Shown here one piece after another: positions 5,980 to 22,408 of a DNA stretch of 22,408 nt. The DNA is from Candidatus Wukongarchaeum yapensis. Its GTDB lineage: Archaea > Asgardarchaeota > Wukongarchaeia > Wukongarchaeales > Wukongarchaeaceae. The translations under genes were made by a program, and so were the position numbers. The notes beneath the pieces were generated by a model that searched no databases, was not told the DNA's origin, and worked only from the letters and a program-made list of their open reading frames with translations. Each line of letters starts with the position of its first letter. Within the stretch, counting starts at the first letter, position 1. Where the stretch lies: positions 1-22,408 of the forward strand of contig JAEOSI010000011.1 in the NCBI GenBank assembly GCA_016840425.1, read 5' to 3'.

Positions 5980-6087
5980 TGGGCGAGCCCGGATTCGAAC
6001 CGGGGACCTCCACTTTACGCGTTTTCAAACTTAGTATGCAAGATGTCTCGTAAGGGTGGCATCATAACCGAACTAGACTACTCGCCC
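5980..6087 (-). tRNA. tRNA-Val(UAC) with a 33-nt intron at non-canonical position 39/40 (intron 6014-6046)
   Basis: Acceptor stem GGGCGAG/CTCGCCC, anticodon TAC at 6052-6050, T-loop TTCGAAT. Removing 6014-6046 restores the CCACC/GGTGG stem. The BHB central helix is TACG/CGTA. Confidence 0.9.
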
Positions 6088-7923: not shown

Positions 7924-8290
7924 ATGGCTGGGTATCCAGAGTAGCCCCTCTTCTGTTCCGCGGGGCCTTTCGCCTGAAGGCGGCAGACATCCCGCTCAGC
8001 AACATTCAACTAAGCGCCTTACCCGGCCCTCATAGACATTCATTGGAGCCCTATTTAGGCTTGCTCCGCGGCGTTAGGCCGTTTCAACGCTCCTTCACGC
8101 TTCCTCAACGGTAAGAGACTAATAAGCGCCATATCATCGTCATTTGGCGTGAAGACGTCTCGTTTCTGCTCCTAGAGCCGGGTTCTCACCCGGTGACTTA
8201 CGCCACGCCACTTGCCTAGGGAGGAGGGAGCTTCCTCAAGACATGCAGATCGATACATGTCCCGAAAGTCACCCTTGGACTCCCAGCCAT
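7924..8290 (-). ncRNA. rnpB: RNase P RNA (archaeal, type A-like)
   Basis: Terminal P1 ATGGCTGGG/CCCAGCCAT; CR-I GAGGAAGCTCCCTC pairs with CR-V ACAGAAGAGGGGCTAC; GCAGAAAC and GAAACGGC conserved blocks; GGTAA in the L15 region; TATA-like TTAAAATATA about 21-30 nt upstream. Confidence 0.92.
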
Positions 8291-9136: not shown

Positions 9137-9182
9137 AGGCCTCATAAACTTCGTGAAAACTTTAGCGGCTAAGATACTTAAG

Positions 9183-9190
<8 letters not shown>
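9137..9190 (-). other. 3' arm of the pre-23S processing stem with BHB
   Basis: Pairs with 12244-12298. Central helix CGCT (9167-9164), AAA bulge (9163-9161). Confidence 0.88.
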
Positions 9191-12243
<3,053 letters not shown>

Positions 12244-12252
<9 letters not shown>

Positions 12253-12298
12253 CTATAATAGTATCTCAGCTATCGCCGTTTTTTGGTTTATGAGGCCT
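12244..12298 (-). other. 5' arm of the pre-23S processing stem with BHB
   Basis: Complementary to 9137-9190. Central helix GGCG (12277-12274), ATA bulge (12273-12271). Confidence 0.88.
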
Positions 12299-14307: not shown

Positions 14308-14407
14308 GGCCTGGATGGGGTAGTGGTATCCTGAGGGACTGTGGATCCCTTGACGCGGGATGGAACATAGGAAATGCTCCACGCGATTTCAATTCCCGCT
14401 CCGGGCC
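14308..14407 (+). tRNA. tRNA-His(GUG) with encoded G-1 and a 28-nt intron at 53/54 (14360-14387)
   Basis: 8-bp acceptor stem GGCCTGGA/TCCGGGCC, anticodon GTG at 14341-14343, stem AGGGA/TCCCT. Strict BHB: TTGA/TCAA, CGCG/CGCG, TGGA/TCCA. Confidence 0.93.
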
Positions 14408-15072: not shown

Positions 15073-15207
15073 TGGTGCGGGGGATGGGATTCGAACCCAC
15101 GCAGGTTTATGCGGTTTTATTACAACTCTACACCACAGGATTCGATCGCTAAACGATGTTTAACGTGCCTCAGTCCTGCTCCTTTGGCCTGGCTCGGACA
15201 CCCCCGC
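15073..15207 (-). tRNA. tRNA-Leu(GAG) with two introns: 26 nt in the anticodon loop (15142-15167 if 37/38) and 21 nt in the variable arm (15107-15127); CCA encoded
   Basis: Acceptor stem GCGGGGG/TCCCCCGC region, anticodon GAG at 15171-15169, stem CAGGA/TCCTG. Splicing restores the variable arm GGT-GTAG-ACC. T-loop TTCGAAT. Confidence 0.88.
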
Positions 15208-15645
15208 TGCTGGAAAACGCCCCCAGAAGCCTCTACGAGCCATTTTAGAGGGGTTGATCCTTTGAGGGTGCTTTCTTCAAATCGTAGACCTTTGAAGGTA
15301 GAAAATCCTTCATCGTTTATAAAGTCTACGACAGCGCATAGCAGCTGTTTGCGCCTACTGCTACGATTCTCACGTAGTTCTTCAGCGTTTTTGAGAGCCA
15401 AACATATTAGTAAATCTTCTTCTTTTTGAGTATTCCATAAAAGCCAAACTTTTTATCCCTAAGCTACAAAGAGTTAATAGAATTGTATTTTGGATAACGA
15501 TTTACACCATGACCTAAAAAACTTCCAAAAGCAGAATCCTCAAAAAGAACATTTACTAAAGCAATCTAGGGGCTTTATTTTATAGAAGAGAAAGTTTTTT
15601 GAAGAAGTTTCTTTTTTAGATAGTTTTACACTGGAGGTAAAAATT

Positions 15646-20783: not shown

Positions 20784-21446
20784 ATGTTTTTAGGAACAGA
20801 GCTTGTAAAAGGAAAAAGCGTAGAACATGCACTATATGCAGCAATAAAAAAACACGGAGGAAAAAATAAGGAAATCCTCGAGAAAATAGCACAATATATC
20901 CAGTTAGGGATGCCTTTTGAAAGAATCATGGAAAAAACAATAAAAACAAAAGAAAAAGAAGAAGACGAAATAAACGGTCTAGACGAGAACACAAAAAAAG
21001 TATTAGAAATAACACAAAAAATAATAAAAAACAACCCAAAAAAAGCAGGAGAAACACTCATCCGCCTGTCGACAAAAATTGACGAAAATAAAAAACACAG
21101 AAAACGCCGAGAAACCATGATAAAAGCAGAAAAAACAAAAGCAACAATAACCATCTTCATAATCTTCGCAATCATGGGGCTCTTAGCAGGAATAACACCC
21201 CTCCTAACACTTGCCACAACCATAACAAAAACAAACCCACAAAACTACAGAACGATTGTAACCCAAACAGTAATCCAACAAAACCACATAACCACCCTAA
21301 CCCTCCTCATAACAACAATAATAACAGCACACTACACAGGAAAAATCACCATGACAGAAAAAACATGGAAAAACATACTCATCGGAACACTACTATTCCT
21401 AATAATATACCAAATAACAACCATAACAATAGCAAAAACACCCTAA
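20784..21446 (+). CDS. TadC/T2SS-F-like platform protein (the frame is open from 20691; possibly the C-terminal half of a fused gene)
   Basis: GKSVEHAL...ILEKIAQYIQLGMPFE T2SSF-like segment followed by three hydrophobic helices. Confidence 0.72.
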   Translation: MFLGTELVKGKSVEHALYAAIKKHGGKNKEILEKIAQYIQLGMPFERIMEKTIKTKEKEEDEINGLDENTKKVLEITQKIIKNNPKKAGETLIRLSTKIDENKKHRKRRETMIKAEKTKATITIFIIFAIMGLLAGITPLLTLATTITKTNPQNYRTIVTQTVIQQNHITTLTLLITTIITAHYTGKITMTEKTWKNILIGTLLFLIIYQITTITIAKTP

Positions 21447-21474
21447 AAAAGAAGAAAACAAGAGAGATTTATGA

Positions 21475-21579
21475 CGCCGGGGGTGGGATTCGAACCCACG
21501 CGACGCAAAGCGTCAGCAGGTAACCCGAAACCAAATCTATTACCTCAGAATAGGCATAAAATCAAGCACTCGAGCCTAC
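21475..21579 (-). tRNA. 5'-truncated tRNA-Ser(CGA) (positions 27-73 only) with a 47-nt intron at 37/38 (21522-21568)
   Basis: GTAGG-CTCGAG-[intron]-A-CCTGC, long variable arm GACGC/GCGTC, T-arm GTGGG-TTCGAAT-CCCAC, 3' acceptor strand CCCCGGC-G73. BHB helix CTCG/CGGG. No GCCGGGG or D-arm upstream. Confidence 0.8.
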
Positions 21580-21659
21580 AAACGAAGATATCACGCAAAA
21601 AAGCCGAAAAAACGCGTAGCGGATCTTTGCTTATACGTCCCTAAATAGTTGAGGAGATA

Positions 21660-22408
21660 CTACTCGATCCAAGACCTGTACTCCTTCGCCTGATCGTGTA
21701 ACCCCATCTTCTCACAAAGCTTCGCCCCCTCCTCGTAAAGCTCATTCGCCCTCTTCTGATCACCTAACTCCTCATAACACAACCCCGTGTTAATGAAGCA
21801 TTCGGATATACCACTTTTGTCCCCCAACTCCTCGAAGATCTTCAGAGCTCGCTGGAAGTACTCCAAAGCATCACCATAATCACCCTGATCATAAAAGATG
21901 GCGCCCATATTATTGAGGCAGAGGGACACACCACTCTTGTCCCCCAACTCCCCGAAGATCTTCAGAGCTCGCTGGAAGTGCTCTAAAGCCCTTTCATAAT
22001 CACCCTGATCATAAAAGATGAGGCCCATATTATTGAGGCAGAGGGATATGCCACTCTTGTCCTCCAACTCCTCAGCCATCTTCATAACTCTCTGAAAGTA
22101 CTCTAAAGCCCTTTCATAATCACCCTGATCATAAAAGATGAGGCCCATATTATTGAGGCAGAGGAATATGCCACCCTTGTCCCCCAACTCCCCGAAGATC
22201 TTCAGAGCTCGCTGGTAGTACTCCAAAGCATCCCCATAATCACCTTGAGCAGAGAAGGTGGCACTCATGCCGATGAGGGAGTTGGATATCCCGCCCTTGT
22301 CCCTCAACTCCTCGAAGATCTTCAGAGCTCGCTGGAAGTACTCCAAAGCATCACCATAATCACCCTGATCATAAAAGATGGCGCCCATATTATTGAGGCA
22401 GAGGGACA
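21660..22408 (-). CDS. Tetratricopeptide-repeat protein (40-aa repeats), 5'-incomplete
   Basis: Repeating unit NNMGLIFYDQGDYERALEYFQRALKIFEELGDKSGISLCL. The frame stays open to the window edge. Confidence 0.9.
   Translation of the reverse strand, partial: SLCLNNMGAIFYDQGDYGDALEYFQRALKIFEELRDKGGISNSLIGMSATFSAQGDYGDALEYYQRALKIFGELGDKGGIFLCLNNMGLIFYDQGDYERALEYFQRVMKMAEELEDKSGISLCLNNMGLIFYDQGDYERALEHFQRALKIFGELGDKSGVSLCLNNMGAIFYDQGDYGDALEYFQRALKIFEELGDKSGISECFINTGLCYEELGDQKRANELYEEGAKLCEKMGLHDQAKEYRSWIE
21781..22408. repeat. 120-bp tandem repeat array encoding the TPR units
   Basis: The units align at a 120-bp period. 21825-21928 is identical to 22305-22408, and 21981-22044 is identical to 22101-22164. 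Confidence 0.92.

Follow-up and report, generated by a model that had tools for sequence, protein, structure and literature searches.

A 3' piece of tRNA-Ser(CGA) beside a foreign TPR gene in an Asgard archaeon: the probable distal repeat of an old insertion

Split tRNA genes are found in Nanoarchaeum equitans and Caldivirga maquilingensis. The split tRNAs of these two archaea are discussed in a paper (PMC3293823) that is also one of two sources for the standard footprint of archaeal integration, namely a reconstituted tRNA gene accompanied by a direct repeat of its 3' part (PMC3293823, PMC8371274). A repeat that starts at the anticodon stem is classical (PMC8371274), and integration into intron-containing archaeal tRNA genes has also been published (PMC6563490, PMC3293823). 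In the Heimdall group of Asgard archaea, integration beside tRNA genes has been described (PMC8813620), and bacteria harbor so-called cis-mobilisable elements (CIMEs), stretches of att-flanked DNA that have no integrase of their own (PMC6323972, PMC5704250).

Here we analyse a piece of a tRNA-Ser(CGA) gene from an Asgard archaeon, for which the original prediction had offered two readings: a direct repeat that a tyrosine integrase had left behind, or the 3' half of a split tRNA. The window is the whole 22.4-kb contig C123 of a MAG (G000; 2.16 Mb in 277 contigs, 38% GC, 92% completeness), which we compared with a sister species (G001, contig L014), a third species (L017) and two more assemblies from the window's own species (L019 and L020). 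Set against the archaeal footprint, the Ser locus has a tRNA gene with a co-oriented repeat and foreign DNA, and it has no integrase. The feature belongs to a known kind, tRNA-targeted insertion with gene capture, and is ordinary in type.

The remnant and its complete counterpart

Read on the minus strand, nucleotides 21579 to 21475 form positions 27-73 of a tRNA-Ser(CGA) with a 47-nt intron at 37/38, the 5' part being missing upstream (Table 1). The claim that started this work, a tRNA-Ser(CGA) without its first 26 nt, is therefore borne out, and so is the claim that unrelated sequence replaces the 5' acceptor strand and D arm: the stretch 21659-21580, which comes directly after the TPR stop codon (21662-21660), resembles neither of them. 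Positions 27-73 had also been described as intact, which is not perfectly so in this strain: the variable loop is 1 nt shorter (TTTG) than in the full gene (TTGTG). The T arm reads GTGGG/TTCGAAT/CCCAC, and the 11 nucleotides at 21569-21579 are identical in all 11 copies that were compared.

A BHB motif had been predicted for the intron, and one can indeed be drawn by hand at 37/38, with a 4-bp central helix (C32-G, U33.G, C34-G and G35-C, formed with CGGG of the intron) and two 3-nt bulges (A36-G37-U and U-U-A38). It is of the relaxed kind, because the minimum-energy fold favours an extended 6-bp helix. Upstream of G27 lie two T6 tracts (21612-21607 and 21602-21597), and no TATA-like box was seen between these tracts and G27. 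T6 tracts are the usual archaeal termination signal, and, judging from their sequence and place, these two are probably the oligo-T terminator of the TPR gene.

Rfam, used with an E-value threshold, does not call the remnant, of which the T arm alone scores (14.6 bits). ARAGORN makes zero tRNA calls in the window and in the compared loci, whose tRNAs it misses because of their introns. The window also contains a gene for 23S rRNA that has no 16S gene next to it, one for RNase P RNA, and more tRNA genes interrupted by introns (together at 9181-12253, 7930-8284, 5980-6087 and 14309-14407); ARAGORN calls none of these additional tRNA genes either.

Table 1. Features around the tRNA-Ser(CGA) remnant, in window coordinates.
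Feature	Coordinates	Strand	Description
TPR_12-repeat gene, C-terminal 248 codons and stop	21660..22408	-	N-terminal part at C137:20088-20704
Right end of the insert	21580..21659	-	80 nt from the TPR stop codon to G27; two T6 tracts
Remnant, positions 27-37	21569..21579	-	Anticodon-stem 5' strand GTAGG, loop CT-CGA-G; anticodon CGA at 21572-21570
Remnant, intron at the canonical 37/38 site	21522..21568	-	47 nt; 79% identical to the homologous intron of the full gene, which has 45 nt
Remnant, positions 38-73	21475..21521	-	CCTGC anticodon-stem strand, long variable arm, T arm, acceptor CCCCGGC, discriminator G
Outer end of the repeat	21458..21474	-	About 15 nt past the tRNA, TCATAA.T.TCTCT, resembling the 3' flank of the full gene; from alignments in three species
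Host flank, 220-aa membrane protein	20784..21446	+	Convergent; heads a T2SSF/T2SSE/TFB-like cluster

The genome was searched for the predicted acceptor strand, as had been suggested, and this search located the full gene: an intact tRNA-Ser(CGA) at C137:19818-19946, with a homologous 45-nt intron and an Rfam tRNA score of 42.3 bits. The 105 nt of the remnant cover positions 26-129 of this gene with 90% identity (E = 1e-31), and so the resemblance is not due to chance. The TPR gene begins 141 nt past the full tRNA gene and runs off the end of C137. Within the genome, the TPR repeat DNA of this gene occurs on C137 and the window contig only, the ends of these two contigs share an exact 46-nt overlap, and joining them there gives an in-frame TPR protein of 439 aa. 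On the strength of these three observations, we take the two contigs to be adjacent.

Once the contigs are joined, the full gene and the remnant are co-oriented and separated by 1,541 nt. Homology between the copies begins exactly at G27 (21579) and stops about 15 nt past the tRNA, which makes a direct repeat of about 120 nt. In fact, the whole layout, from EF1A-S10 through the two tRNA-Ser copies and the TPR gene to the host genes, is borne on single contigs in L014 (G001), L017, L019 and L020. The order of the locus is RtcB, archease, EF-1alpha, S10, tRNA-Ser(CGA), TPR gene, tRNA-Ser(27-73) and a convergent cluster of secretion-ATPase type. Its first gene on the far side of the remnant, for the 220-aa membrane protein, is syntenic in all species, with DNA 94-96% identical. 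In this species, the genes at the other end of the locus, directly upstream of EF-1alpha-S10-tRNA-Ser (L019:441-2478), encode the tRNA ligase RtcB and its cofactor archease. A relative from the same order (G002) has a tRNA-Ser(CGA) with a different intron in a different neighbourhood and therefore gives no ancestral state.

The foreign insert and parallel cases in the genome

The DNA between the two copies is a 1.54-kb insert with, in all three species, a single gene, which codes for TPR_12 repeats. The orthologue of the joined protein is 440 aa long in G001, where it lies on one contig. GC3 of the gene is 62-64%; the 693 long ORFs of the genome have a mean GC3 of 35% (sd 5%), and not one of them is as high as the insert. 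By this composition the insert DNA is foreign in origin. Outside the clade, its nearest TPR relatives are bacterial TPR_12 signalling proteins with 35-45% identity. The near-identical 120-nt repeat units of the gene are what broke the assembly (window 21660-22408, C137:20088-20704). In L019 and L020 the protein has 255 aa as against 439-440 aa; since both assemblies are of the same species as the window, the number of TPR repeats either varies or is uncertain. We rejected the idea of a giant tRNA intron with the TPR gene inside it, as the proximal tRNA gene is already complete.

In none of the five assemblies is there an integrase or another hallmark of mobile elements between the repeats or beside them. 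The genome has three integrase-like genes, all of them PF00589 matches and found on C133, C192 and C189 only; a profile search of G000 with PF16795 gave zero matches. A donor element with a matching tRNA piece did not turn up, either in viral contigs (pattern scans) or among phage and plasmid records (blastn). The TPR cassette itself is present at this one locus and in this clade only. Thus, of the predicted integrase-made direct repeat, the part that stands is a full gene with a homologous intron to the right, in the same orientation and with foreign DNA between; the integrase is the part that does not. An att region that spans the intron had been thought unusual, and here published precedents (PMC6563490, PMC3293823) correct the prediction. 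The duplicated segment spans the tRNA intron, and so this gene served as a landing site despite the intron in its anticodon loop.

The same genome contains a second insert of this sort, again without an integrase. At C259:9611-10506 (L021:1112-2007) lies a tRNA-Met(CAT) gene interrupted at 31/32 and at 38/39 by introns. A 638-nt AT-rich insert (30% GC) comes next, and then a partial copy of the gene, which begins at intron 1 and has a compensatory change in the T stem. In G001, contig C119 has a single tRNA-Met gene whose 3' flank is the flank of the G000 partial copy, and this is the empty site. The tRNA-Met insertion is younger than the Ser case. The non-coding ends of the two inserts, TPR and tRNA-Met, have zero further copies in the genome. 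A 19-nt piece of tRNA-Cys abuts the tRNA-Met partial copy. Another fragment, at C150:1807-1848 (L022), is a decayed 3' part of tRNA-Cys(GCA), 86% identical and with a broken T stem and acceptor strand; its parent lies far away on C232, and the fragment is a probable integration scar that was not kept intact.

Some tRNA genes of this genome also have a shared 5' neighbour. A conserved module of 200-400 nt, in copies about 82% identical, stops precisely where at least 10 tRNA genes start, all of them with GC[CG]GGGG as their first letters; about 95 nt ahead of the tRNA the module carries a perfect TTTATAAA box. Copies are found in the window at 15209-15403 on the minus strand (upstream of the tRNA at 15076-15207), at C137:19418-19817 and on eight other contigs. 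The tRNA-Ser gene of the third species does not have it, and so the module arrived independently of the TPR insert.

Origin and conservation of the remnant

Among the three species, 20-26% of the aligned sites differ in the spacers that adjoin the remnant. The right end of the insert, 80 nt long, is 70-80% identical and therefore evolves about neutrally. The 58 exon nucleotides of the remnant, by comparison, show 0 substitutions in all three species pairs: their only changes are two 1-nt indels, and all substitutions between copies are confined to the intron, which in the remnant is 70-78% identical among the species when gaps are counted. With a neutral rate of about 0.24, 58 sites would all stay unchanged with a probability of about 1e-7 per pair, and so the exon parts of the remnant have been held constant. 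The remnant of the third species is short of one C in the acceptor strand.

What could hold them constant? The copies are mosaics. A 41-nt intron type with a TAC start is carried by the remnant in two species and by the full gene in the remaining one. The state of the variable loop (TTTG or TTGTG) tracks neither copy type nor species; in fact, the remnant has TTGTG in the two other assemblies of this species, as against TTTG in the window. A base of the central helix, C in both G000 copies and T in both G001 copies, likewise tracks neither. In the third species only 2 of the 105 positions distinguish the two copies, as compared with differences of 22-30% between the introns of different species. 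From these mosaic copies, and from the near-identical ones of the third species, we infer that short patches pass by gene conversion between the remnant and the working gene, which lie 1.5 kb apart. Conversion must spare intron differences, for in two species the copies differ at 11-14 intron sites and have clean exon blocks. Short patches make this possible, but the main rival, direct selection on the remnant, would explain the pattern equally well.

To account for the locus as a whole, we propose that the remnant is the distal direct repeat of an old insertion into tRNA-Ser(CGA), its exons kept identical through gene conversion, a reading to which we give a probability of about 0.7. Circular foreign DNA, carrying the TPR gene and a tRNA 3' part of its own, would have recombined with the tRNA-Ser(CGA) gene downstream of EF1A-S10 in a Campbell-type insertion, by means of a tyrosine integrase or of a single homologous crossover. 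As the insert has no integrase, the tyrosine-integrase route is a presumed one, and a single homologous crossover of a circular fragment would leave the identical footprint. The event would have rebuilt a complete tRNA gene on the proximal side, the working gene on C137, and left a promoter-less 3' piece on the distal side, the fragment in the window, which is most likely not expressed. It would be older than the divergence of three or more Hodarchaeota-like species, and any integrase would have been lost since.

The split tRNA reading takes the piece as a 3' half with a leader, to be joined to a separate 5' half through a BHB near 26/27. The exons and the intron splice motif are intact in this strain, as such a half would have them, and the 26/27 boundary is sharp and conserved. 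But a contiguous tRNA-Ser(CGA) with the same anticodon and acceptor lies 1.5 kb away; the 25-nt 5' part is found only in the full gene, both in G000 (92% complete, searched with up to 4 mismatches) and in G001 (87% complete, up to 3); and the reverse complement of the leader, searched by blastn-short, matches at most 16 nt in the genome, at an unrelated place. The leader is moreover conserved at only 70-80%, T6 tracts stand upstream of G27, and in the third species the acceptor strand is shortened. This half of the original prediction is thus very improbable. A 7-bp acceptor complement that lies 329 nt upstream of the T arm turned out to be the recurring GTTGGGG of the TPR repeats and not a 5' half. 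Hardly credible, in turn, is a mis-join at about 21580 that would have removed the 5' part, an artefact that the original prediction had named: the window is the whole contig of a fragmented MAG and its break falls inside the TPR repeats, but the identical junction recurs in five independent assemblies from three species (G000, G001/L014, L017, L019 and L020). An old tandem duplication of the complete tRNA-Ser(CGA), into which the TPR gene landed later at the cost of the second copy's promoter and its positions 1-26, would be compatible with a layout of full gene, insert, co-oriented 3' part and about 15 nt of common trailer. It is nevertheless improbable, for it needs two independent events and a deletion that ends exactly where the anticodon stem starts; the tRNA-Met case shows insert and duplicate arising together, and no relative with two complete copies was found.

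Selection could also keep the remnant, as the working recombination site of a single-gene cassette that has no integrase. The remnant and the matching part of the tRNA gene would then be the two ends of the cassette, comparable to a CIME or an integron cassette, which a recombinase encoded elsewhere could excise, exchange or re-insert. One contig matters here: L016 (Ga0209536_100206738), the single candidate for an empty Ser site, has the hybrid sequence expected of one, without the TPR insert, but is possibly collapsed or chimeric. Its first part (1-1317) is an unrelated segment of 44% GC with a DegV-like gene, the remainder (1318-2464) is the S10-tRNA-Ser region, and the two meet at an A-run within the end of EF-1alpha; the switch point of the repeat falls within a 38-nt identical stretch. 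It may come from a rearranged strain that has lost the cassette by excision, or else be an assembly that is chimeric and collapsed, and, given the unrelated left part and the switch within identical sequence, we set it aside as proof of excision. In favour of a maintained recombination site, the remnant exons have no substitution in three species amid neutral neighbouring DNA, and other parts of the genome do encode integrases. G000 has the tRNA-Met insert and G001 lacks it, the difference falling exactly at the repeat. L016, finally, resembles a third-species site that is empty or from which the cassette was excised, and its sequence switches within the repeat. Yet L016 is a doubtful contig, the TPR cassette sits at one locus in one clade only and is fixed in four assemblies of this species, and neither a circular form nor a second site is known. 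The tRNA-Cys fragment on C150, for its part, has decayed, and gene conversion accounts for the conservation without any function. We therefore regard such a working site as unlikely.

With this analysis the Asgard archaea lose a candidate split tRNA, whose origin is most likely an ordinary insertion of foreign DNA into a tRNA gene. Exchange between a silent copy and a working gene would moreover be a concrete path by which a tRNA intron can change while the exons stay untouched. More tentatively, and as a reading of low probability, we envision that 3' tRNA pieces, introns included, may serve Hodarchaeota-like Asgard archaea as recombination sites for single-gene cassettes without integrase, the silent copy acting as a donor that overwrites the intron and variable loop of the working gene, which is what seems to have taken place in the third species. 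If this were true, foreign genes such as the TPR gene would be captured and lost at tRNA remnants, and these remnants would be a route of tRNA intron change.

Comparison with known systems

The closest likeness is to the archaeal elements bounded by attL and attR, of the SSV1 and pNOB8 types (reviewed in PMC8371274; Thaumarchaeota survey, PMC6563490), which can leave captured genes behind when they decay. There, too, an intact tRNA gene and a co-oriented 3' copy bracket foreign DNA, the repeat runs from the anticodon stem past the 3' end, mismatches between the copies persist and intron-containing tRNA genes serve as targets. Unlike these elements, the Ser locus has no integrase or integrase fragment, and its insert measures a mere 1.5 kb and carries just one TPR gene. 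The repeat is also long, at about 120 nt, because it spans an intron of 41-47 nt, and the arrangement is old and fixed in three species.

A second likeness is to the tRNA-Thr of Caldiarchaeum subterraneum (Sugahara et al. 2012, PMC3293823), where a short insert (1.8 kb) also separates a reconstituted tRNA from a fragment and introns also lie in the recombining segment; the model proposed there is that copies of the mobile element and of the host exchange intron alleles. However, the Caldiarchaeum fragment is a 5' one, its insert codes for a recombinase and the variation is found within one population, whereas the Ser fragment is a 3' one, without a recombinase and fixed across species. The split tRNAs of N. 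equitans and C. maquilingensis share with our locus an isolated 3' tRNA piece after unrelated sequence, but here a contiguous gene exists, and there is no partner half and no complementary leader or trailer.

Like the CIMEs (PMC6323972, PMC5704250), the Ser locus has two att-like repeats at a tRNA gene and no recombination genes between them. CIMEs have been shown to be mobilised in trans, whereas the Ser cassette is seen at one site only and its mobility is putative. Finally, HeimV1 and the aloposons (Wu et al. 2022, PMC8813620) come from the same archaeal group and use tRNA genes as landing sites. They are large and encode integrases or giant genes; the Ser insert is a single-gene remnant.
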